This document shows positions 3,822 to 21,781 of a stretch of DNA of 32,000 bases, one piece after another. The DNA comes from Chlamydiota bacterium. Its GTDB lineage: Bacteria > Auribacterota > JACPWU01. The translations under genes were made by a program, and so were the position numbers. Position 1 is the first letter of the stretch, and each line of letters begins with the position of its first letter. The stretch covers positions 60,001-92,000 of the forward strand of contig JACPWU010000002.1 in assembly GCA_016196885.1 (NCBI GenBank), written 5' to 3'. The notes under the pieces are model-generated. The model had not been told where the DNA came from. It did not search any database and was given only the letters and a program-made list of their open reading frames with translations.

Positions 3822-5819
3822 ATGAACTACGCCCGTCTTTTTTTTGAAGTTCCATTAAAGCAAGGTTTTGATTACCTCATTCCTGAACACTTGCGATCCC
3901 AGGTGGTGGAAGGTTCTCGCGTCTTGGCCCCTTTCGGTCGCGCGAGGAAGTGGGGTTATGTGAAGGAACTTTTAGTCAAGCCGGATGTATCTGAAGTGAA
4001 AGAAATTTTAGAAATTGCAGAAGGCCCTCCCGTTTTTACGCCTGCCCTTTTTCAATTGGCCCAGTGGATGAGCGATTATTACCTTTCTCCTCTGGGCATG
4101 GTTTTGAGAACGATGTTGCCCGGTCCATTTCGAAAATTTCGTTCAGCGACATCGAGAGTGAAGGAGACTCTTTTCGAAGAAGAAAATGAAATGGAGTCCC
4201 CTCATCTCTTGAATGAAGAACAGAAAAAGGCCCAAGGGCTTATTTTTAAAAGATTAGATGAAGCCATTTTTTCCGTGGTTCTCATTCATGGTGTGACGGG
4301 CAGTGGAAAAACGGAGCTCTATCTTTCGAGTATTGAAAAAGTCTTGGCCCAAGGAAAAGATGTGATTGTGCTGGTGCCTGAAATTTCTTTGACGCCACAA
4401 ACAGTAGAGCGGGTAAAAAATCGCTTTGGTAAAATTGTGGCCTTGATGCACAGCCGCATGAGCGAGGGGGAGCGCGTTAAGGAATGGGAGAGAATTCAAA
4501 GGGGTGAGGCCCGCATTGGGGTAGGGCCTCGTTCTGCGGTGTTTGCGCCTTTTCGGAATTTAGGTCTGATCATTGTGGATGAAGAGCATGAGCGTACCTA
4601 TAAACAAGAAGAAATGCCGCGTTATCAGGGTCGGGATGTCGCGATCATGCGGGCCAAGTTCGAAAGGGCCGTGGTGCTTTTGGGATCGGCGACTCCGGCT
4701 TTGGAGTCCTATTTTAACGCAGAACAGGGAAAATACGATCTTGTGACTCTTTTGAAGCGCGTGATGAACCGGCCCATGCCGGAGGTGCGAGTTGTGGACA
4801 TGCGCAAAGAATCAGAAGCTTATGGACGACTTATTTCTTTTTCCAAAACGTTAAGTGATGAGATCAATGAACGGCTGAAGCGTCGGGAGCAAGTGATTCT
4901 ATTTTTAAATCGTCGCGGCTATGCCCCCATGGTTTTATGTCCCAAATGTGGTCATGTCATTATTTGCGTGGAGTGCGATCAGGCAATGACCTATCATCGG
5001 AACAGAGAATACATGCTTTGCCATCTATGTGAATCTCAAATTCCCATTCCTCAAAAGTGTCCGAAATGCGAGCATCCTAGGCTTCATCGCTTGGGGGTGG
5101 GAACGCAGCGCATTGAAACCCATTTGGAAAAAATTTTGCCTCATGCGACGCTTCGCCGCATGGATACGGACTCGACACGGACTAAAGATGCGCATGAAAA
5201 AATTCTACAGTCTTTTCGATCAGGGGAGGTTCAAATCCTGGTGGGAACCCAGATGATTGCGAAGGGGCTAGATTTCCCAAATGTCACTTTGGTGGGGGTG
5301 ATGAGTGCAGATGTGGCCATGAGTCTTCCGGATTTCAGAATGGGCGAGCATACGTTTCAGTTGTTAACCCAGGTGGCAGGCCGCTCAGGAAGGGGAGACA
5401 AAAAGGGGGTGGTGTTGATTCAGACGCTCACGCCCTTTCATCCTGTGATTCGAGCGGCGATGGCGCAAGATTATTTACAATTTTATAAAAGCGAATTGGT
5501 TTATCGCAAACAGTTGGTCTATCCTCCTTTTTCGCGCATTGTCTCCATGGAATTTGAAGGCAAGCCTGAGCCCAAGGTCATTCAGGTGGCGAAAGAAATG
5601 AGCGTCTTAGTCAAAAAACATCTTCCCTCCTCAACTCGCGTTTTCGGTCCTCATCAAGCGCCCATTTCCAAGATCAAAGGAAAATTCCGCTGGCAAATCA
5701 TTCTTTTTTATCCGCGTGGCCAATCCATTCATGAACCTTTGAGACGGGTTCTGGATGATTTTAATCAGGATAGATTAGTGAAGGTGATGATCGACGTGGA
5801 TCCGGTGAGTTTGATTTAG
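3822..5819 (+). CDS. priA: primosomal protein N' (replication restart helicase PriA)
   Basis: Walker A GVTGSGKTE, DEEH box, Cys-rich zinc region CPKCGHVIICVECDQ...CHLC...CPKCE, 665 aa. Confidence 0.95.
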   Translation: MNYARLFFEVPLKQGFDYLIPEHLRSQVVEGSRVLAPFGRARKWGYVKELLVKPDVSEVKEILEIAEGPPVFTPALFQLAQWMSDYYLSPLGMVLRTMLPGPFRKFRSATSRVKETLFEEENEMESPHLLNEEQKKAQGLIFKRLDEAIFSVVLIHGVTGSGKTELYLSSIEKVLAQGKDVIVLVPEISLTPQTVERVKNRFGKIVALMHSRMSEGERVKEWERIQRGEARIGVGPRSAVFAPFRNLGLIIVDEEHERTYKQEEMPRYQGRDVAIMRAKFERAVVLLGSATPALESYFNAEQGKYDLVTLLKRVMNRPMPEVRVVDMRKESEAYGRLISFSKTLSDEINERLKRREQVILFLNRRGYAPMVLCPKCGHVIICVECDQAMTYHRNREYMLCHLCESQIPIPQKCPKCEHPRLHRLGVGTQRIETHLEKILPHATLRRMDTDSTRTKDAHEKILQSFRSGEVQILVGTQMIAKGLDFPNVTLVGVMSADVAMSLPDFRMGEHTFQLLTQVAGRSGRGDKKGVVLIQTLTPFHPVIRAAMAQDYLQFYKSELVYRKQLVYPPFSRIVSMEFEGKPEPKVIQVAKEMSVLVKKHLPSSTRVFGPHQAPISKIKGKFRWQIILFYPRGQSIHEPLRRVLDDFNQDRLVKVMIDVDPVSLI

Positions 5820-10195: not shown

Positions 10196-10293
10196 AATTT
10201 CCAATAACAAATGTCAAATTAATTTCCAATTCTCCAATGACCCATTGGGGATTGGAGCATGGGTCATTCATTTGATATTTGTTATTGGAAATT
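10196..10293. repeat. word hairpin WH2 (CCAAT/ATTGG words, nested)
   Basis: The outer arms AAATTTCCAATAACAAATGTCAAAT / ATTTGATATTTGTTATTGGAAATT have 1 mismatch. The inner stem is AATGACCCAT / ATGGGTCATT. WH2 fills the spacer between fmt and the rsmB remnant. Confidence 0.8.
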
Positions 10294-10303
10294 GGTTATT
10301 TCT

Positions 10304-10844
10304 ATGAGTCCTCGTGACGCTGCCTTTCACGCCCTTCAAAATTGGGAAAAGAAATCTTTGCCTATCTCTTACACCCTCGAGCCCTATTTTTTAAAGGCGA
10401 GTGAAGAAGATTTTTGAGAACATGAGGCGGTTGGGAATCAAAATGATTCTACCGATGGTGGCGGATGCGACGAAGATCAAAAATCTTTTTAAAATTCCTT
10501 TTGACCGCATTTTGGTAGATGTCCCGTGTTCTAATTGCGGAGTTTTTGCTAAAAGGGTCGAGGCCCGCTGACGGTTTTCTATGAAAGAAGTCAAGCGCTT
10601 GGCTGCGTTACAGATTCAAATTTTAAAAGAGGCGCTTCGGCTTCTAAAGTCAGGGGGGATTTTGGTGTATTCTACGTGCAGCATTGATCCTATCGAAAAT
10701 GAGGAAGTGGTTCGAGCTTCCTTGAAAGACCAAGCTCAATTCCAGCTCACCGATGAAAAAACAATATTTCAAACTCTTCAGCAGGCGGGGGGCTATTGGG
10801 CAAAGATAAGACTTTCCCTTGACAAGGGCGCTTTCCTAATTTAG
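10304..10844 (+). pseudogene. rsmB: decayed 16S rRNA m5C967 methyltransferase gene (rsmB/sun)
   Basis: 10304-10417 encodes MSPRDAAFHALQNWEKK...EEDF*, an RsmB-like N-terminus. 10422-10841, in another frame, encodes RRLGIK...FDRILVDVPCSNCGVFAKRVEAR*RFSMKEVKRLAALQIQILKEALRLLKSGGILVYSTCSI. This is the RsmB catalytic C-terminus, with TGA (10569-10571) at the conserved Trp position. About 250 codons, including SAM-binding motif I, are absent. The gene sits in the expected position after fmt. Confidence 0.75.
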
Positions 10845-10860
10845 ATTGAGTCTCAATTAA
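10819..10860 (+). promoter_or_regulatory. promoter (TTGACA-17-TAGATT) overlapped by a palindromic operator-like site
   Basis: TTGACA at 10819-10824, a 17-nt spacer, then TAGATT at 10842-10847. A perfect 6+1+6 palindrome ATTGAGtCTCAAT lies at 10845-10857, within TTAGATTGAGTCTCAATTAA. The SD AGGAG is at 10865-10869 and the ATG at 10876. Confidence 0.5.
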
Positions 10861-10875
10861 ACCCAGGAGTGTCAG

Positions 10876-12282
10876 ATGTTTGAATCGTTCATTATTACCT
10901 TGAGAGAAGGGATTGAGGCCTCCCTGGTGATCGGCATCCTTTTGGGGATTTTGAAAAAAATCTCGAGGGAGGACCTCGTTCGCTTCGTTTACGGGGGTGT
11001 GGGGGCCGCGGTCGTGGCCAGTGGCCTGGGGGCTCTTTTCCTCCAATCCTTTGTCATCAATGAAGAGGTGTATGAAGGGACCCTTTACCTTGTCGCCGCT
11101 TTTTTTGTGATCACCATGCTTTGTTGGATGCGCCGGCATGCCAGAACATTAAAGGGAGAAATTGAAACGGCTGTTCATCACATGACAGGTGGAGCCCAGA
11201 AAAAAGGAGAGGCCTGGGGAATTTTTGCCTTCACCTTTTTCATGGTTTTTCGGGAAGGGGTTGAGACGGTTCTTTTTTTAAGTGCCGTGGGTCTTACCAC
11301 GCAAAAGCTTTTGTCTTTTATCGCAGGACTGTTGGGTCTGGTGCTGGCCGTTCTTTTCTGCGTGGCTTTTGTGAAGGGGACCCTGCGGATTGATTTGGGG
11401 AGATTTTTCCGGGTGAGCACCGCCGTTTTATGGATTTTTGTTTTTCAATTGTGGGTCAATGGTTTTCACGAATTGTCCGAAGCTCAAATTTTACCTGCCA
11501 GTCAAAGGGAGATGGCCCTTGTAGGACCTTTGGTTAGAAACAATGCCTTTTTTATTTTGGCCATTCTGGCGATTCCCATTTTTATTTTTTTATTCTCTGC
11601 TCGGAAAAGGGAAAATTTACCCGATGAAATGTCAGGCCCTGAACGCAGACTGGCGTTGTCCAAGGCGAAAAGTGAAAGGCGCTGGCGTTTCAGTTGGTCG
11701 GCTGTCTCTTTTTTGATTCTTCTGTCTTTGGGGGCGCATACCGTTTATTCCAATCGGTCTGAAAAAATAGACCCTCCCCTTCTCGTAGAAAGCCAAGGCG
11801 GCTCGATTAAAATTCCTCTTTCTGAAGTAAATGATGGAAGGCTTCATCGGTTTGGCTTGAATGTTGGGGAAGGCATGGTTCGTTTTCTTGTCATTAAAAC
11901 CAGCGATGATCGTTATCGAACAGCCTTTGATCTTTGCGAAATCTGTGGAGATTATGGCTATCGCCAAGAAGGTGAGAATATTATTTGTCTCAATTGTACG
12001 GCGGCCATCCATCCTCCGACAATGGGTGTGGCAGGGGGATGCAATCCCATTCCTTTACAATCGTGGGTCGAGGGAGGGGAGCTTTTGGTTAAAGAGACAG
12101 ATTTAAAAGTGTTTCAAGATCATTTCAAAATGAAGGTGCTACCGGAAGTGACGTGCACCCTTTGTCACATGAAATTACATTTTGAAGAGGCAAAAGAAAT
12201 AAAGGCGAAGGGAAAAACTTTTTATCTTTGTCCGATGGAATCTTGCCAAAAAGAATTTGAGAAACGGTATTTGAATTATTAA
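10876..12282 (+). CDS. FTR1-family iron permease fused to a DUF2318-like Cys-rich domain and a C-terminal zinc ribbon (TRASH/YHS-like)
   Basis: Two REGxE motifs (REGIE aa 10-14, REGVE aa 126-130) and about 7 TM helices. After a further TM helix comes FDLCEICGDYGYRQEGENIICLNCTAAIHPPTMGVAGGCNPIPL, which I recognise as DUF2318/COG4393-like. The terminal ribbon is C427xxC430-x21-C452xxxxC457. Confidence 0.8.
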   Translation: MFESFIITLREGIEASLVIGILLGILKKISREDLVRFVYGGVGAAVVASGLGALFLQSFVINEEVYEGTLYLVAAFFVITMLCWMRRHARTLKGEIETAVHHMTGGAQKKGEAWGIFAFTFFMVFREGVETVLFLSAVGLTTQKLLSFIAGLLGLVLAVLFCVAFVKGTLRIDLGRFFRVSTAVLWIFVFQLWVNGFHELSEAQILPASQREMALVGPLVRNNAFFILAILAIPIFIFLFSARKRENLPDEMSGPERRLALSKAKSERRWRFSWSAVSFLILLSLGAHTVYSNRSEKIDPPLLVESQGGSIKIPLSEVNDGRLHRFGLNVGEGMVRFLVIKTSDDRYRTAFDLCEICGDYGYRQEGENIICLNCTAAIHPPTMGVAGGCNPIPLQSWVEGGELLVKETDLKVFQDHFKMKVLPEVTCTLCHMKLHFEEAKEIKAKGKTFYLCPMESCQKEFEKRYLNY

Positions 12283-12321
12283 AAACTAATTTGGACGAAA
12301 TTATTTTTAGAGACTTTTCCT

Positions 12322-13584
12322 ATGCTCTTACGAATCCTCAGTGAATCTTTCATGCGTCGCAAGCGGCGCAAAATACTGGGTGTTTTTGCCGTTTCCCTGG
12401 GCGCCAGCCTGGCGACGGCGGTGATTGGGATTTCCTTGGAAGTGGGAGATAAGGTGAGTCGTGAATTGAATGTTTATGGCTCGAATATCGTGGTTCATCC
12501 TTCGGATATTGTAGATGAAGAAGAGGGCCCCGTTCTGGGACAGCCCAGGCTCGACGAATCGGACCTTCCCAAAATGAAAACGATTTTCTGGGGCAATAAC
12601 ATCATGGATTTTGCCCCTTTTCTTTTGAGCGAGGTTACCCTCAAGGGCGAGACAATTTCTATTGAAGGAACATGGTTCTCTAAAGAAATGAGTGTCCCAG
12701 ATGGCCCATCCGTTAGAACGGGAGTCGAAACCCTTTTCCCTACCTGGCATGTGGAAGGGTCTTGGCCTCGAGATGATCAGGCCTTGAGAGAGGTGCTCGT
12801 AGGAAAAGAGATCGCGGCCCAGTTTAATATTCATCCTTCTCAAAAAATCACGATTGAGAAAAACGGAAAACCACTTGAGGTTTTAGCAACAGGAATTTTA
12901 AATTCGGGAGAGCAATACGATTCGAAAATTTTGGTGGATTTAGATTTGGCCCAAGGGCTCACTGGACTTCCTAAGGGAGTGGACCAAGTTTTCGTTCGAG
13001 CGCTCACCATTCCAGAAGATGATTTTCTGAAGCTTTACGCGCGTCATCCGCAGTCTCTTTCTCCTCAAGAGTATGAACGGTGGTCATGTTCCCCTTATGT
13101 CAGTACCGTTGCGGCTCAGCTTCAGGAGGCGATTGCGCATGCGGTTGCAGAGCCCATTCTTGAAGTTTCTCAAAGAGAAGGGGTTTTGCTTAAAAAGCTC
13201 AAAGGACTTTTTATTTTTATTTGTGCAGTTGCTTTATTAGCCGCTGGAGTTGCTTTAACCACTGTTTTAATGGCCACGGTGGTAGAAAGGCGTCAGGAGG
13301 TCGGGCTTTTAAGGGCTTTAGGCGCAGGCTCCAAAGATGTGGTTTTAATTTTTCTATCTGAATTGGCTGTCATGGCCATCCTCGGATCTTTTTTGGGGGG
13401 GGCCTTAGGCTATGGATTGGGACAATGGATATCCTTTCATTTGTTTCACTCTTTTATTCAACCTAATCCGATGGTTCTCTTTATTGTTGCGGGAGTGACA
13501 TTGACCATCTCTCTTATGGGAGGCCTTTTCCCTATACGATTTGCCCTCAAAGTAGACCCTGTGAGAGTCTTGCATGAAATTTAA
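12322..13584 (+). CDS. ABC transporter permease, FtsX/MacB type (N-terminal TM, large periplasmic domain, 3 C-terminal TM)
   Basis: 420 aa with MacB-like topology. FtsX-domain motif ERRQEVGLLRALGAGSKDV. Confidence 0.85.
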   Translation: MLLRILSESFMRRKRRKILGVFAVSLGASLATAVIGISLEVGDKVSRELNVYGSNIVVHPSDIVDEEEGPVLGQPRLDESDLPKMKTIFWGNNIMDFAPFLLSEVTLKGETISIEGTWFSKEMSVPDGPSVRTGVETLFPTWHVEGSWPRDDQALREVLVGKEIAAQFNIHPSQKITIEKNGKPLEVLATGILNSGEQYDSKILVDLDLAQGLTGLPKGVDQVFVRALTIPEDDFLKLYARHPQSLSPQEYERWSCSPYVSTVAAQLQEAIAHAVAEPILEVSQREGVLLKKLKGLFIFICAVALLAAGVALTTVLMATVVERRQEVGLLRALGAGSKDVVLIFLSELAVMAILGSFLGGALGYGLGQWISFHLFHSFIQPNPMVLFIVAGVTLTISLMGGLFPIRFALKVDPVRVLHEI

Positions 13585-14689
13585 AATGTTTTTAAAACTT
13601 TGTTTTGCTTCGATTTCTCATCAAAAGGGTAAATCAGCTTTGATGATGATTGTTTCTGTTATGGCCGTTGCGGTGACCACCAGTCTCTTGGGATTGATTT
13701 ATGATGTTCGGCTTCAAATGCAAAAGGAACTCATGGCCTTTGGCCCTAATTTTAAAGTCCAACCTCAATGGAATACCATTGGCAACATGATTTCGTGGGC
13801 CCAGTACGACGAAATTGAAAAAATGTTTTTCAGGCCAGATGCAATTATTTGCCCTGTTTTAGCGGGTGTGGTGTTGTGGAAAGATCGCTCTCAATTAATA
13901 GAAGGCGTTTTATTAGATGCTTACCAAAAGATTTCCAAGCATTGGATAGTGGAAGGTACATGGCCAAATAAGCCAGGAGAAGTTTTAGTGGGAGAAAAAG
14001 TCGCTCAGAAATTTCATTTAAAGTTGGGAGAGACTTTGACTTTTGATCAGTCCTCTCAAGCTTTTTTGATTCGAGGTTTTTTTCGATCAGGGACCCGAGA
14101 AGAAGAAAAAATAGTTTTCTCAATGAAAGGCGCGCAAAAAATTTTAAAAGAGGAAAAAAACTTTTCATTTGTTTTTGCCAGATTAAACAATTCTCTTCAG
14201 GAATTAGAAAATTTAAGCGAAAATATTGAAAAACATTTTCCTGATTTAAAGGCGGTTCCTATTCGAAGGGTTTCTTTGGCGGAGGGAGCGATTCTAGATC
14301 GTATTGGCAGTTTAGTGGGATGGGTGAATATCCTGATTTTGATGGTTGCTGCGTTGGCTTTGATGGCGACTTCAACAGTTTTGGTGGATGAGCGCCGTGA
14401 AGAGTTTGGCTTGCAGCGGGCCTTGGGAGCAAGTCCCGCTCAATTGATGCGGCTTTTTTACATGGAAACTTTTTTGAGTGCCTTCATCGTTTCACCCCTT
14501 GGTTTTTTACTAGGATTCTGGGGGCTAAAAATATTGGCTTATGAGGTTTTTTCGGCTCAAGCGACTTTTCGGTGGGAAATGGTTCCTGTGATTTTGATTG
14601 TTTTAATGGTTGTCATTCTTCTAGGAGAGAGTGTGGCTGTGAGAAGAATTGCGACCCTTGAGCCGGCGATGGTTTTAAAAGGGGAGTAA
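13574..14689 (+). CDS. ABC transporter permease, FtsX/MacB type (second subunit)
   Basis: 371 aa with the same topology. Motif ERREEFGLQRALGASPAQL. It overlaps the upstream gene by 11 nt. Confidence 0.85.
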   Translation: MKFKMFLKLCFASISHQKGKSALMMIVSVMAVAVTTSLLGLIYDVRLQMQKELMAFGPNFKVQPQWNTIGNMISWAQYDEIEKMFFRPDAIICPVLAGVVLWKDRSQLIEGVLLDAYQKISKHWIVEGTWPNKPGEVLVGEKVAQKFHLKLGETLTFDQSSQAFLIRGFFRSGTREEEKIVFSMKGAQKILKEEKNFSFVFARLNNSLQELENLSENIEKHFPDLKAVPIRRVSLAEGAILDRIGSLVGWVNILILMVAALALMATSTVLVDERREEFGLQRALGASPAQLMRLFYMETFLSAFIVSPLGFLLGFWGLKILAYEVFSAQATFRWEMVPVILIVLMVVILLGESVAVRRIATLEPAMVLKGE

Positions 14690-14698
14690 ATGAGTAAA

Positions 14699-14730
14699 GG
14701 ACGATGGACGATGGAAGATGGACGAAGATG
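14699..14730 (+). repeat. tandem heptamer array WH3 (GGACGAT GGACGAT GGAAGAT GGACGAA GATG)
   Basis: Read directly. It occupies essentially the whole permease-ATPase spacer and contains four ATGs (14704, 14711, 14718, 14728). There is no local complementary arm. Confidence 0.8.
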
Positions 14731-15801
14731 AGCAGCCTTATTCAAGCAAAAAATTTAACGCGTCGTTATAGTGACCATGTCATGGCCCTCGATCATGTAG
14801 ATTTAACAGTTGAACGAGGTGAATGGCTTGCCATGATGGGGCCTTCTGGGTCTGGGAAGACGACCTTGCTGAATTTATTGGGTTGTTTGGATCGTCCCAC
14901 GGAGGGAGAAATTTTCTTTGAAAATCGTTTGATCAGTACTTTCAGTGCTCAAGAGTTGAATCGCTTTCGCCGCGAAAATGTAGGGATCGTTTTTCAGCAA
15001 TTTCATTTGATTGGTTATTTGACGGCCCTGGAAAATGTAATGTTGGCTCAGTATTATCACAGCATGGTCGATCGTGAGGAGGCAAAGCGTGCCCTAGAGG
15101 ATGTCGGATTGGGTGAGCGGATTCATCATTATCCGTCACAACTTTCGGGAGGGGAGCAACAGCGGGTTTGCGTGGCCCGGGCCTTGATTAATCAGCCTAA
15201 ATTGATTTTGGCAGATGAACCTACAGGAAATTTGGACGAGAAAAGCGAAGAGACGGTGCTGGATCTTTTTCGGCGTTTGCACGCAAAGGGACACACTATT
15301 TTAATGGTCACGCATGACGTGACCGTTGGAAAAATGGCGGATCGTCAACTGCAATTGGAACACGGAAGAATAGCAGGATCTTATTTAAGTCCCCTTCAAG
15401 CAGAGGAGGATATTGAGAATTTTCTCAAGCGCTTATGGGAATTACGTGAAGAGGGTAAGCTTTCGTATGACTATTTGCAGAAAAATAATTTTTTGGATCA
15501 TGCGGGTGTTTTGAAATACATGCAGGCCAAAGAACTTTTGGAAGTGAAAGATCGAAAAATCTATTTTACTTCAGCAGGTGAGCTTCGTATGAGAGATATC
15601 ATTCGTCGCCACCGGCTGGCCGAAATACTTTTTTCTAAAGCTTTACACATGGATAAAGAAGAGTCGGCTGTTGAGGCCTGTCAATTTGAGCACATGCTCA
15701 ATCCCGATATCACAGAAAGAATCTGTACTTTTTTTCATCATCCAAAGAAATGTCCTCATGGGAAGGAAATTCCTGGAGGGAAATGCTGTGAAAGACCGTA
15801 G
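14728..15801 (+). CDS. ABC transporter ATP-binding protein (MacB/LolD type) with C-terminal DtxR/IdeR-like metal-dependent regulator domain
   Basis: The NBD has GPSGSGKTT, LSGGEQQR, LILADEPT and VTHD. The C-terminal ~135 aa read ENFLKRLWELREEG...RRHRLAEILF...EACQFEH...CPHGKEIP, colinear with DtxR EMYLRTIYELEEEG...RKHRLAERLL...EACRWEH...CPHGNPIP. The start is ATG 14728 (MSSLIQAKNL) or 14704. Confidence 0.85.
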   Translation: MSSLIQAKNLTRRYSDHVMALDHVDLTVERGEWLAMMGPSGSGKTTLLNLLGCLDRPTEGEIFFENRLISTFSAQELNRFRRENVGIVFQQFHLIGYLTALENVMLAQYYHSMVDREEAKRALEDVGLGERIHHYPSQLSGGEQQRVCVARALINQPKLILADEPTGNLDEKSEETVLDLFRRLHAKGHTILMVTHDVTVGKMADRQLQLEHGRIAGSYLSPLQAEEDIENFLKRLWELREEGKLSYDYLQKNNFLDHAGVLKYMQAKELLEVKDRKIYFTSAGELRMRDIIRRHRLAEILFSKALHMDKEESAVEACQFEHMLNPDITERICTFFHHPKKCPHGKEIPGGKCCERP

Positions 15802-15881
15802 CTCGTCTTTCGTCGTTCGTCTTCCGTTTATAAGCAAGAAGTTAGTAACGGACGACGAACAACTAACGAAGAACGACGAAC
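15802..15881. repeat. word hairpin WH4 (heptamers TTCGTCN / GACGAAC)
   Basis: The left arm CTCGTCTTTCGTCGTTCGTCTTCCGTT (15802-15828) is imperfectly complementary to the right arm AACGGACGACGAACAACTAACGAAGAACGACGAAC (15847-15881). WH4 starts immediately after the ATPase stop. Confidence 0.8.
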
Positions 15882-15911
15882 AAAAATTGTTCAAAAGAAA
15901 AACAGGTTGTT

Positions 15912-17189
15912 ATGAACCCCTATCATGGCTTATGGCTTAAGGCTCAAGAATTAATGCCCGGCGGTGTCAACAGTCCCGTACGGGCTTTTAAGTCTGTGGG
16001 GCTTGATCCGCTGATTGTTTCCAAAGCCAAGGGTTCCAAAATTTATGATGTTCGAGGCAAGGCCTATTTGGATTTGGTCATGTCCTGGGGACCTTTGATT
16101 TTAGGGCATGCGCATCCTGAGATTTTGAAAGCAGTAAAAGAGGCTTTGGAGGAGGGGTCTAGCTTTGGTGCCTTGTCTCATCGCGAAATTCTCTTGGCTG
16201 AGGCGATTTGTAACGCGCTGCCTTCCCTTGAAAAAATCCGTTTTGTCAGTTCGGGAACAGAAGCGGCCATGACAGCCATTCGTTTGGCGCGGGCTTTTAC
16301 TGGAAGGGATAAAATGATCAAGTTCGAAGGTTGCTATCACGGCCATTCCGATTTTCTTTTGGCCAAGGCGGGCTCTGGCCTTGCGACTTACAGTCTCGCA
16401 GGAAGCGCGGGGATTCCTAAAGAGGTTTTGAAATCTACGCTTGTTCTGCCATTCAATGATTGGGTGGCTCTTGAAAAAACAATGAATCGCTTCGGTCGTG
16501 AAATCGCCTGTATTTTGGTAGAACCCATTCCCGCCAACATGGGCTTGGTGTTTCCCGAAAAGGATATGCTTAAGACCTTAAGAAAAATGTGTACGCAAAA
16601 AGGAATCCTTTTAATCTTTGACGAAGTGATCACAGGTTTTCGAGTCGGATACGGAGGCGCACAAGAGCTTTATCACGTTCAACCTGATTTAACTATTTTA
16701 GGGAAAATCATTGGCGGCGGATTTCCCGTGGGTGCTGTCGGTGGGCGTAAAGAAATCATGGATCAATTGGCACCTTTGGGACCCGTGTATCAAGCAGGAA
16801 CCCTTTCTGGAAATCCGGTGGCCATGGCTGCGGGATTAAAAACTTTGGAAATTCTGAAGAGAAAAGGCGCTTATGAAAAACTTGAAAAGCTGGGCGCAAC
16901 TCTTGCTGGTGGTCTCGAAGAAATATTAAAGAAGAAAAAAATTTCCTTTCAGCTCCATCGCATCGGCTCCATGATGACTCTCTTTTTTAATGATCGGCCG
17001 ATTGAGAATTATCAGGATGTATTACAATGTAATACAGAAAAATTTAATCAATTCTTTAGAGAGATGTTTCGAAAAAGAATTTTCCTTCCTCCCTCTGCCT
17101 TTGAAACCTGGTTTTTGAGCTTGAGCCACTCTGCTCAAGACATCGAGAGCTTCTTAAAGGCAGCTGACCAGACGTTCAAGGCTTATTAA
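15912..17189 (+). CDS. hemL: glutamate-1-semialdehyde 2,1-aminomutase
   Basis: N-terminus ...MPGGVNSPVRAF, PLP-lysine region LGKIIGGGFPVGA, 425 aa. Confidence 0.95.
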   Translation: MNPYHGLWLKAQELMPGGVNSPVRAFKSVGLDPLIVSKAKGSKIYDVRGKAYLDLVMSWGPLILGHAHPEILKAVKEALEEGSSFGALSHREILLAEAICNALPSLEKIRFVSSGTEAAMTAIRLARAFTGRDKMIKFEGCYHGHSDFLLAKAGSGLATYSLAGSAGIPKEVLKSTLVLPFNDWVALEKTMNRFGREIACILVEPIPANMGLVFPEKDMLKTLRKMCTQKGILLIFDEVITGFRVGYGGAQELYHVQPDLTILGKIIGGGFPVGAVGGRKEIMDQLAPLGPVYQAGTLSGNPVAMAAGLKTLEILKRKGAYEKLEKLGATLAGGLEEILKKKKISFQLHRIGSMMTLFFNDRPIENYQDVLQCNTEKFNQFFREMFRKRIFLPPSAFETWFLSLSHSAQDIESFLKAADQTFKAY

Positions 17190-21562: not shown

Positions 21563-21643
21563 AAATGCACAGTCCTATTTTTGAGGACAGATTCTAACAT
21601 TTCTTAAAAAAAAGGAAATGATTTTGGGTTTATTTTTTTTATA

Positions 21644-21781
21644 GGCATATGCACTTGACTTAAAGATGTCGTCCATTTGTAGTCGCCCCATTTATGGGGC
21701 CGTGCCCCTTGCATGGATTGCCCGATAAATCGGGCGACTACGCTTGACGGATCAAGAATACTTGAGCCAAGTGCATATGCC
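21644..21781 (+). repeat. nested palindromic structured element, copy 2
   Basis: Perfect 14-bp terminal inverted repeat GGCATATGCACTTG / CAAGTGCATATGCC. The 42-nt core GGATTGCCCGATAAATCGGGCGACTACGCTTGACGGATCAAG is identical to copy 1, in the same orientation. Confidence 0.85.

Follow-up and report, generated by a model that had tools for sequence, protein, structure and literature searches.

In Chlamydia trachomatis the iron-responsive protein YtgC-YtgR (CT069), encoded in an uptake operon, carries a DtxR-family module at the C-terminus of a metal-uptake subunit of an ATP-binding cassette (ABC) transporter, and permease-repressor fusions of this kind have been reported in 11 phyla (PMC5599777). 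The C-terminal domains that follow the nucleotide-binding domains (NBDs) of the ABC ATPases MetN and ModC dimerize, bind the imported substrate and block the transport cycle (PMC10710835). Here we describe an ABC ATPase with a DtxR-like C-terminal tail, encoded in an iron-uptake operon of a Chlamydiota bacterium (assembly GCA_016196885.1). The operon lies within positions 60,001 to 92,000 of contig JACPWU010000002.1, and this whole stretch of 32,000 nucleotides is called the window below. An annotation made earlier from the letters of the window alone (the original prediction) had proposed the fusion, and we followed it up computationally.

The fusion resembles both precedents in part. Like YtgC-YtgR, it places a DtxR-family module at the C-terminus of an ABC uptake subunit, in an uptake operon and in the same phylum. 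The YtgC-YtgR partner is the membrane permease of a TroA/cluster-9-type importer, whereas the partner in the window is the NBD (PF00005) of a MacB/FtsX-type system, so that the hallmark of YtgC-YtgR, a DtxR module on the C-terminus of a TroA-type permease, is absent here. YtgR is cleaved off and represses transcription, whereas the window tail has a two-residue junction free of insertions and deletions (indels), has lost the helix-turn-helix (HTH) signature and is accompanied by a Fur-like operator. Like MetNI, with its C2 domain, and ModBC, the window protein has an extra folded domain directly C-terminal to the NBD. The MetN and ModC domains dimerize beneath the two NBDs and bind, in the cytoplasm, either the imported species or a proxy for it (PMC10710835), and the same is predicted from sequence for the window tail. 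Their regulatory domains, however, are ACT-like and TOBE-like, whereas the tail consists of a DtxR-like winged helix and a helical dimerization domain; its ligand would be a transition-metal cation and, unlike MetNI and ModBC, its host is a type VII (MacB-like) ABC system. We know of no regulatory NBD domain in a system of that type. By analogy with these systems, there is about an even chance that the fusion works like the MetN and ModC regulatory domains but is built from a DtxR-family module, as a transporter-regulator fusion like YtgC-YtgR. Our literature searches (domain-architecture databases were outside their scope) found no description of a DtxR module on an ABC ATPase. The statement that this regulator family had not been described fused to a transporter ATPase is supported by these searches but calls for a qualification: a fusion between a DtxR module and a transporter is not unprecedented as such, given YtgC-YtgR, and it is the attachment to an ABC ATPase that is apparently new and undescribed.

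The gene and its parts are as follows, with residues numbered throughout from the ATG at 14704:

14704 to 15801, + strand: fusion open reading frame (ORF), ABC ATPase with DtxR-like tail; 365 residues from the ATG at 14704, 357 residues from the ATG at 14728

14728 to 15384, + strand: NBD of the MacB/LolD/FtsE type, residues 9-227, catalytic motifs all intact; the last strand in the AlphaFold model is residues 222-227

15391 to 15570, + strand: winged-helix-like subdomain, residues 230-289, with helices at 230-249, 255-260 and 263-275 and a hairpin at 279-288 (AlphaFold); the fold matches IdeR

15571 to 15789, + strand: metal-binding/dimerization subdomain, residues 290-362 (PF02742, E 3e-22), containing H303, E307, C326, E329, H330, C350 and H352 together with the clade-specific C341, H346, C361 and C362

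The ORF contains no stop or frame break. The database entries for its product (MBI1884341.1 and MBI3265518.1) are labeled only 'ATP-binding cassette domain-containing protein', and NCBI gives the source as a Chlamydiota metagenome-assembled genome (MAG; GCA_016178005.1). The start of the gene holds four ATGs in 40 nucleotides, within a reiterated GATGGA(C/A)GA-like stretch (14690-14730), which makes the start codon ambiguous between 14704 and 14728. The ATG at 14728 (Met9) agrees better with the N-termini of the family and is the start in one public gene call (357 residues). Residues 1-225 match ABC_tran (PF00005) at E 4.6e-35. The best NCBIfam models for the NBD are LolD, FtsE and MacB, each scoring below its own equivalog cutoff, and in Foldseek MacB, MJ0796 and LolD rank top, with template-modeling (TM) scores of 0.86-0.93 to the target. 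Walker A (GPSGSGKT), the Q-loop, LSGGE, D171-E172 and H204 are all intact, and the adjoining genes encode proteins with FtsX and MacB_PCD domains. Both sequence and fold thus place the NBD in the MacB/LolD/FtsE (type VII) group, as an ATPase that is complete and, judged by its motifs, catalytically competent; this is the ordinary MacB/LolD-type domain, reaching to about residue 225, that had been predicted.

The remainder of the protein is colinear with the DtxR/IdeR core over residues ~230-362, which bears out the proposal that residues ~231-365 correspond to the core of DtxR, IdeR and MntR. PF02742, the metal-binding/dimerization domain of the family, matches the tail with 78.8 bits (cutoff 27) and was found in 23 of 23 tails examined. 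Positions 9-134 of the NCBIfam DtxR model align with tail positions 8-128, and a phmmer search of the PDB retrieved IdeR and DtxR at E ~1e-11, with IdeR residues 8-134 aligned. An AlphaFold monomer model of the tail alone (predicted local distance difference test score 91.9, predicted TM score 0.85) superimposes on two-domain IdeR/DtxR structures with a TM score of 0.80 and a root-mean-square deviation of 2.2 A over 127 columns.

Equivalences to DtxR/IdeR residues were all read from HMMER alignments. In these, IENFLKRLWELREEG of the tail pairs with TEMYLRTIYDLEEEG of DtxR/IdeR, RRHRLAE with RKHRLAE (making H303 the counterpart of His79 and E307 that of Glu83) and EACQFEH with EACRWEH (C326, E329 and H330 for Cys102, Glu105 and His106), all three as first proposed. 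Likewise confirmed was the statement that the primary ligands are retained and the Met10 and His98 equivalents are not. At the primary-site positions C326, E329 and H330 are aligned and invariant, and the Met10 position is N239 in this protein and E, D or N across the family; we take such residues to be possible ligands, as in Mn-type family members. A Cys at the Cys102 position, invariant here, is typical of Fe- rather than Mn-responsive members of the DtxR family. At the ancillary site the protein has H303 and E307, with A322 in the position of His98 (E, S or D across the family) and no SH3 domain; from the alignment, the invariant C350 and H352 of the CPHG motif could substitute there. They align with a motif that is common in DtxR-family members binding mononuclear metals, in which they are the secondary-site ligands of ScaR and SloR. 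The proposed match between CPHGKEIPGG and a DtxR sequence CPHGNPIPG holds for the motif in this clade but not for the comparison, since DtxR and IdeR proper carry SP(F/Y)GNPIPG and CPHG is a trait of other family members and of this clade.

Across 119-121 orthologs the invariant residues of the tail are W245, E249, R301, R302, R304, L305, E307, L309, C326, E329, H330, C341, H346, P347, C350, H352, P357, G359, C361 and C362; H303 is kept in 94%. A set of Cys and His residues, namely C341, H346, those of the CPHG motif and the terminal G-x-C-C, is specific to the clade and missing from IdeR and DtxR. The tail thus shares with DtxR, IdeR, MntR and ScaR the two-domain fold, PF02742 and the equivalents of His79, Glu83, Cys102, Glu105 and His106. 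Unlike these proteins it lacks a detectable PF01325 match and an SH3/FeoA-like third domain, has a shorter HTH stretch and replaced Met10 and His98 equivalents, adds the invariant C341, H346, C361 and C362, and has its N-terminus occupied by a 225-residue ATPase.

PF01325, the winged-helix domain that accompanies PF02742 in DtxR-family proteins, has no match in the fusion protein (E<=0.1), in any of 23 diverse tails (E<=1) or in any of 240 precomputed annotations, so that the Pfam result expected by the original prediction was obtained for ABC_tran and PF02742 but not for this domain. The winged helix is nevertheless present at the fold level. A profile of the N-terminal part of the tail alone has residues 9-69 of DtxR as its best PDB match, weakly (E 0.03). 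The stretch is 5 residues shorter than in DtxR/IdeR, as had been noticed, and three of these are missing at the turn of the HTH. Residues 250-289, i.e. helix 2, the putative recognition helix 3 and the wing, have the lowest conservation in the protein (top-residue frequency 0.33, as against 0.69 in the dimerization domain and 0.73 in the NBD), and the position of the base-contacting Gln43 of DtxR is A, E or S in the family. By this comparison the sensor part of the tail is conserved and the DNA-reading part is not. For the NBD-fused group the net charge of the winged-helix region is uninformative on DNA binding: over an equal span it is -0.9 in that group and -2 in IdeR. Charge was informative for the free-standing relatives described below, whose helix 3 is acidic.

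The two halves are closely joined. In the AlphaFold model the last NBD strand (222-227) and the first tail helix, which begins at 230, are separated by two residues, and none of 121 sequences has an indel in columns 215-254. The coupling of NBD and tail is, on the model and the alignment, rigid and without a flexible linker, and such a junction argues against a cleavable one. Production of a free regulator from an internal translation start was also considered and is ruled out, because no Met occurs between residues 226 and 273.

An identical product is encoded in two NCBI assemblies and in one independent Logan assembly. Among the best 120 full-length matches (50-74% identity, 346-387 residues) all 120 have both PF00005 and PF02742. 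The orthologs number more than 120, the named ones coming from Chlamydiota, Acidobacteriota, Planctomycetota and Latescibacteria; they were obtained with the full-length protein, no ABC fusions being among the matches listed for the tail alone. The same architecture therefore occurs in several phyla, which answers the question raised with the prediction of whether it exists elsewhere. Its members are abundant in Acidobacteriota from soil and groundwater and in further uncultured phyla, where they are annotated as nothing more than 'ATP-binding cassette domain-containing protein', and clustering at 50% leaves only a handful of them. Species-representative genomes, scanned with a six-sequence tail alignment, gave at least 80 loci (the counts refer to the sample of matches listed). 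Tail and NBD share one ORF in 53-55 of the 80 loci listed, and in 48-50 of these 53-55 the FTR1/FtrD and FtsX genes are colinear upstream, the exceptions being truncated contigs. Reading four loci (L002, L004, L005 and L090) gene by gene showed an equal cassette in each. From these comparisons the fusion is genuine, conserved and under selection. The nearest tail-less ATPases are 63-65% identical. One of them (P0255, 227 residues, 63% identical) is encoded in an FtsX-FtsX-ABC cassette of the same kind that has no DtxR gene in its vicinity. A complete system of this type thus exists without the tail, which is an optional addition to it.

The closest free-standing relatives of the tail, e.g. a protein from Geomonas agri (P0058), are 214-245 residues long and 38-45% identical to it, and databases annotate them as metal-dependent transcriptional regulators. 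They share with the tail the W, C341, H346, CPHG and GxCC motifs, the shortened HTH and the lack of PF01325. Unlike it they have no ATPase fusion, keep an SH3/FeoA-like domain after PF02742, are linked to FeoB and not to FTR1, and have an acidic helix 3: the mean charge of this 'recognition helix' is -2.5, with 78% of sequences at -2 or below, compared with 0 in IdeR and +0.55 in the NBD-fused group. Their genes lie directly downstream of feoB in 20 of the 23 loci listed, and fur, often upstream, is in the locus in 13 of the 23; examples are L006 6001-6645 (Geomonas agri), L007 6001-6723 and some 20 further loci among L010-L087. A tblastn search over the listed loci found no second match to the FeoA domain, i.e. 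no separate feoA was detected. These proteins may, from their sequences and gene positions, replace FeoA (and possibly FeoC) rather than act as repressors. An N-terminal domain followed by PF02742 and SH3/FeoA is the ordinary DtxR layout too, and the relatives could also be unusual feoB repressors rather than FeoA substitutes; this is less likely because the helix is acidic. In a neighbor-joining tree rooted on IdeR (a single outgroup, no support values and biased sampling) the 119 tails fused to an NBD group as a single clade inside the free-standing set, which points to a single transfer of the first two domains to an ATPase. Gene context ties the clade to Fe(II) importers, whether FeoB or FTR1 systems.

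In the window the fusion gene belongs to a tightly packed four-gene operon on the + strand, whose other features are:

10819 to 10847, + strand: sigma-70-like promoter, TTGACA-17 nt-TAGATT; the best promoter-like site in 10200-16000, matching at 10 of 12 positions

10845 to 10857, strand not assigned: perfect 6-1-6 palindrome ATTGAGTCTCAAT, overlapping the -10 element; the only exact match in the window

10876 to 12282, + strand: FTR1 permease fused to a periplasmic, Cys-rich DUF2318/FtrD-like domain (FetA-like, 468 residues); Pfam FTR1 6.6e-33, FtrD-like 3.3e-28

12322 to 13584, + strand: FtsX-type ABC permease (FetB-like, 420 residues), 39 nucleotides after the preceding gene; Pfam FtsX 3.3e-17

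13574 to 14689, + strand: MacB_PCD and FtsX ABC permease (FetC-like, 371 residues), overlapping the preceding gene by 11 nucleotides; FtsX 1.3e-17, MacB_PCD 2.8e-10

15788 to 15813, + strand: weak terminator-like hairpin over the stop codon of the fusion gene, a consensus-scan match only

Terminator-like sites in the region are not more numerous than in shuffled controls. An AGGAG ribosome-binding site follows the promoter and precedes the ATG at 10876. The FTR1/DUF2318 protein has both REXXE motifs (REGIE at 10-14 and REGVE at 126-130) and, at 354-389, a CxxC-x13-CxxC-x14-C motif; a CxxC-x13-CxxC-x14,15-C motif has been described for Campylobacter jejuni FetA (PMC6083913). Residues 418-468 form a further C-terminal Cys-rich tail with CxxC elements (CTLC...C..C), and the L005 ortholog has a weak YHS match. 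The cassette resembles the C. jejuni FetMP-FetABCDEF (P19/cFtr1) cluster in combining a DUF2318 protein that has the Cys motif with two FtsX permeases and one ATPase, as FetA, FetB, FetC and FetD. It differs in that the genes called over ~10 kb to each side include no P19/FetP, separate FetM or thioredoxins FetE and FetF, and in that the DUF2318 protein itself bears both FTR1 REXXE motifs, whereas C. jejuni has separate FetM and FetA proteins. The window ATPase has its DtxR-like tail, whereas two papers on the C. jejuni system (PMC6083913; PMC10783030) say nothing of an additional domain in FetD.

A 6-1-6 palindrome is by itself unremarkable in 32 kb. The site at 10845-10857, which the original prediction had singled out as operator-like, does exist and does overlap the -10 element of the best promoter, and comparison with two sister Chlamydiota MAGs makes it a probable repressor operator, most likely a variant Fur box. 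In L002, whose ATPase is 74% identical, an identical 13-mer precedes hemP, the head of a hemP-DUF6662-FTR1 series, and a copy with one mismatch lies just before the start of fur. In L090 perfect copies are found before fur and between fur and hemP. The arrangement operator-fur-operator-hemP is conserved between the two (L002 2335-2347 and 2858-2870; L090 1835-1847 and 2317-2329). The fur gene call of L090 (182 residues) probably starts too early, since the palindrome falls inside the called ORF. The 19-mers centered on the four sister sites agree with the Fur-box consensus of the E. coli type in 12-14 of 19 positions and with the DtxR operator in 6 of 19; 0.025% of the 19-mers of the window reach 13 matches to the Fur consensus. 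The fur gene adjoins the cassette region in L002, L004 and L090, and neither L002 nor L090 has a copy of the palindrome directly before the FTR1 gene. The simplest reading of these sequences is a lineage-specific Fur box serving fur (autoregulation), hemP and the uptake operon, which in the window stands at the FTR1 promoter.

Upstream of the operon the sister genomes have fur-hemP-DUF6662, and the window genome has def-fmt and rsmB remnants instead, so that the upstream context has been rearranged in the latter. The remnants are three consecutive short ORFs (10259-10844; 52, 56 and 87 residues), each with an RsmB-F methyltransferase family match; they look like pieces of a broken rsmB after def-fmt, ending at the iron-operon promoter. 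When 48 upstream regions of orthologous FTR1 genes were scanned for E. coli-type Fur boxes and DtxR operators, neither was enriched overall over shuffled sequences. No operator common to the other phyla was found, and the regulator therefore cannot be generalized beyond the Chlamydiota group. The scan also turned up a recurrent GTAGTTGCAAATCATTAAC motif in Acidoferrum loci, and a recurrent GTAGTTGCAAATCATT(A/T)AC upstream of the FTR1 gene in the Acidoferrum-type genomes L025, L037, L038, L042, L045 and L069; L004 has TTGCAAT-rich repeats before fur (~3850-3890). The Acidoferrum-type motif and these repeats may, from their positions, be the operators of the respective lineages.

Two further observations concern the window away from the operon. 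A 145-bp indel in the 3' end of sucD (~17793; L001 13091-13235) distinguishes two public assemblies of the contig that are otherwise 99.99% identical, so that the succinyl-CoA ligase alpha product has 277 residues in the window and 288 in L001. A repeat of ~135 bp (2469-2594 and 21643-21777; 85% identity with gaps in blastn) has both copies apparently in intergenic sequence and may be a small repeated element.

We favor the reading, to which we would give even odds, that the tail is a DtxR-derived cytoplasmic Fe(II) sensor that feeds back on the activity of the ATPase and leaves transcription to Fur. This follows the suggestion, made with the original prediction, that cytoplasmic Fe or Mn gates the ATPase, which the evidence now favors with the odds evenly balanced. 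Because the operon has two different FtsX permeases but one ATPase gene, each transporter would contain two copies of the ATPase, with their tails side by side; these would pair through their DtxR-type dimerization domains beneath the NBD dimer. Rising cytosolic Fe(II) would fill a primary-type site (C326, E329 and H330 with the N, D or E at 239 on helix alpha1) and an ancillary-type site (H303 and E307 with C350 and H352), the grouping of the ligands into two sites resting on homology. Helix alpha1, which in DtxR provides the N-terminal ligand of the primary site, would here be the rigid connector to the NBD. Since it begins two residues after the last NBD strand, metal binding would fix the geometry between NBD and tail and so restrict opening and closing of the NBDs. 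The result would be lower ATPase activity and less iron uptake, i.e. a trans-inhibition like that of MetNI and ModBC, exerted by a domain with the fold of a metalloregulator. Both these precedents and the logic of iron homeostasis suggest that high cytosolic Fe(II) would inhibit the ATPase and not activate it. Fur, bound to the palindrome at the -10 element, would control transcription of the operon independently. A 2023 review gives no example of trans-inhibition of an ABC transporter by a metal cation (PMC10710835).

Several points weigh against this reading. Systems of the MacB type are no classical importers, and no role in FTR1/P19 iron uptake has been established for FetBCD (PMC10783030). 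To speak of 'trans-inhibition of import' is for this reason to use an analogy, and the tail could also have the opposite effect. The other points bear equally on the view that the tail is a YtgR-like iron-dependent repressor which, cleaved off or tethered to the membrane, acts through ATTGAGTCTCAAT on its own operon and perhaps on fur and hemP. The two-domain DtxR fold is complete, the winged helix with its HTH and wing being fully retained in the AlphaFold models at high confidence, and the TM score of 0.80 was obtained against DNA-bound IdeR structures. The mean charge of helix 3 in the NBD-fused group is near neutral, so that DNA binding is electrostatically possible. The palindrome lies across the -10 element of the operon, and the site in the window, which has the same core as the sister sites but different flanks, has equally good matches to the DtxR consensus (10 of 19) and to the E. 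coli-type Fur consensus (9-10 of 19). Helix 3 (LDHAG[VT]LKYM) and the operator are both conserved in the sister that is 74% identical. Finally, the transporter-fused DtxR module of YtgC-YtgR is a true repressor after cleavage (PMC5599777), and the organism studied here also belongs to the Chlamydiota.

We nevertheless consider a repressor unlikely. PF01325 is absent from every member tested, no part of the protein varies more than the positions of the recognition helix, where A, E or S stands in place of Gln43, and three residues are deleted at the HTH turn. The operator precedes fur and hemP in the sisters, where it scores 12-14 of 19 as a Fur box against 6 of 19 as a DtxR site, and in L002 and L090 the FTR1 gene has no copy immediately in front of it. 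The short, indel-free junction is unlike a protease-accessible linker. In the structures of DtxR and IdeR with DNA the N-terminus is close to the DNA, and an NBD attached there should clash with it. The proposal that the fusion tethers a repressor to its own transporter on the 10845-10857 palindrome is accordingly unsupported: the 13-mer is Fur-like and stands before fur and hemP in the sister genomes, none of the 23 tails matches PF01325, and the recognition helix is the least conserved part.

The tail might instead have no regulatory function, serving either to accept Fe(II) from the FTR1 permease and hand it on or to clamp the ATPase dimer with a structural metal, e.g. Zn on C341, H346, C361 and C362. 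The invariant Cys and His residues, among them a Cys3His set that is specific to the clade and of a kind typical for structural Zn, would fit such a role. So would the place of the module, which always sits at the cytoplasmic face of Fe(II) importers, fused to an NBD or beside FeoB, and PF02742 is by definition a dimerization domain. However, related ATPases in an equal cassette manage without a tail, which is thus not needed for assembly, and the tail has kept both DtxR-type regulatory sites and the whole N-domain fold, more than a clamp requires. Nor, to our knowledge, is there an iron chaperone with a DtxR-like fold. We hold this explanation to be as improbable as a repressor.

Much less probable still is a sensor of oxygen, redox or iron-sulfur (Fe-S) status, like FeoC, in which C341, C350, C361 and C362 with H346 and H352 would hold an Fe-S cluster or act as redox-active thiols, in place of a sensor of mononuclear Fe(II). 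These four cysteines are invariant in NBD-fused and free-standing relatives and absent from IdeR and DtxR. FeoC itself is a winged-helix protein whose Cys-bound Fe-S cluster controls FeoB (PMC10710835; PMC8749426), and the FTR1 partner protein has a periplasmic Cys-rich DUF2318 domain, a redox role having been proposed for the Fet system (PMC6083913; PMC10783030). C350 and H352, however, belong to the CPHG motif seen in mononuclear-metal members of the DtxR family, no search that we made found sequence similarity to FeoC, and the idea is purely motif-based. Joining of separate ATPase and regulator genes by a sequencing or assembly error, which the original prediction had named as a result that would undo it and which is suggested by nothing other than the metagenome-assembled source, is ruled out for practical purposes by the three assemblies, the more than 120 single-ORF orthologs and the indel-free junction.

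Taking the free-standing relatives together with the fusions, we consider it possible, though somewhat less probable than the Fe(II)-sensor reading of the window protein, that the whole DtxR-derived clade has stopped reading DNA and become a hard-wired gauge of cytosolic Fe(II) on ferrous-iron importers, either beside FeoB and with a FeoA/SH3 domain or, after a single transfer, joined to the ATPase in FTR1/DUF2318-FetBCD systems. Cells must be able to stop iron uptake rapidly if Fenton damage is to be avoided, and the known control of bacterial importers is almost all transcriptional, through Fur or DtxR. In a review of post-translational control of transporters FeoC is the one entry for iron, and MetNI and ModABC are the only ABC systems given as trans-inhibited (PMC10710835). 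If the clade-wide reading is true, the tail would be the first metal-cation trans-inhibition domain on an ABC ATPase. It would also be the first regulatory domain on the NBD of any MacB-type system, and a clear case of a transcription factor turned into an allosteric transporter module, possibly with an extra Cys3His site. Were the ATPase gated by cytosolic iron, this would offer a way into the role of FetBCD, whose activity would be a controlled step of uptake, and the tail would be a built-in ligand for its biochemistry and structure. An iron sensor in the uptake motor would then be a direct feedback valve, acting within seconds.

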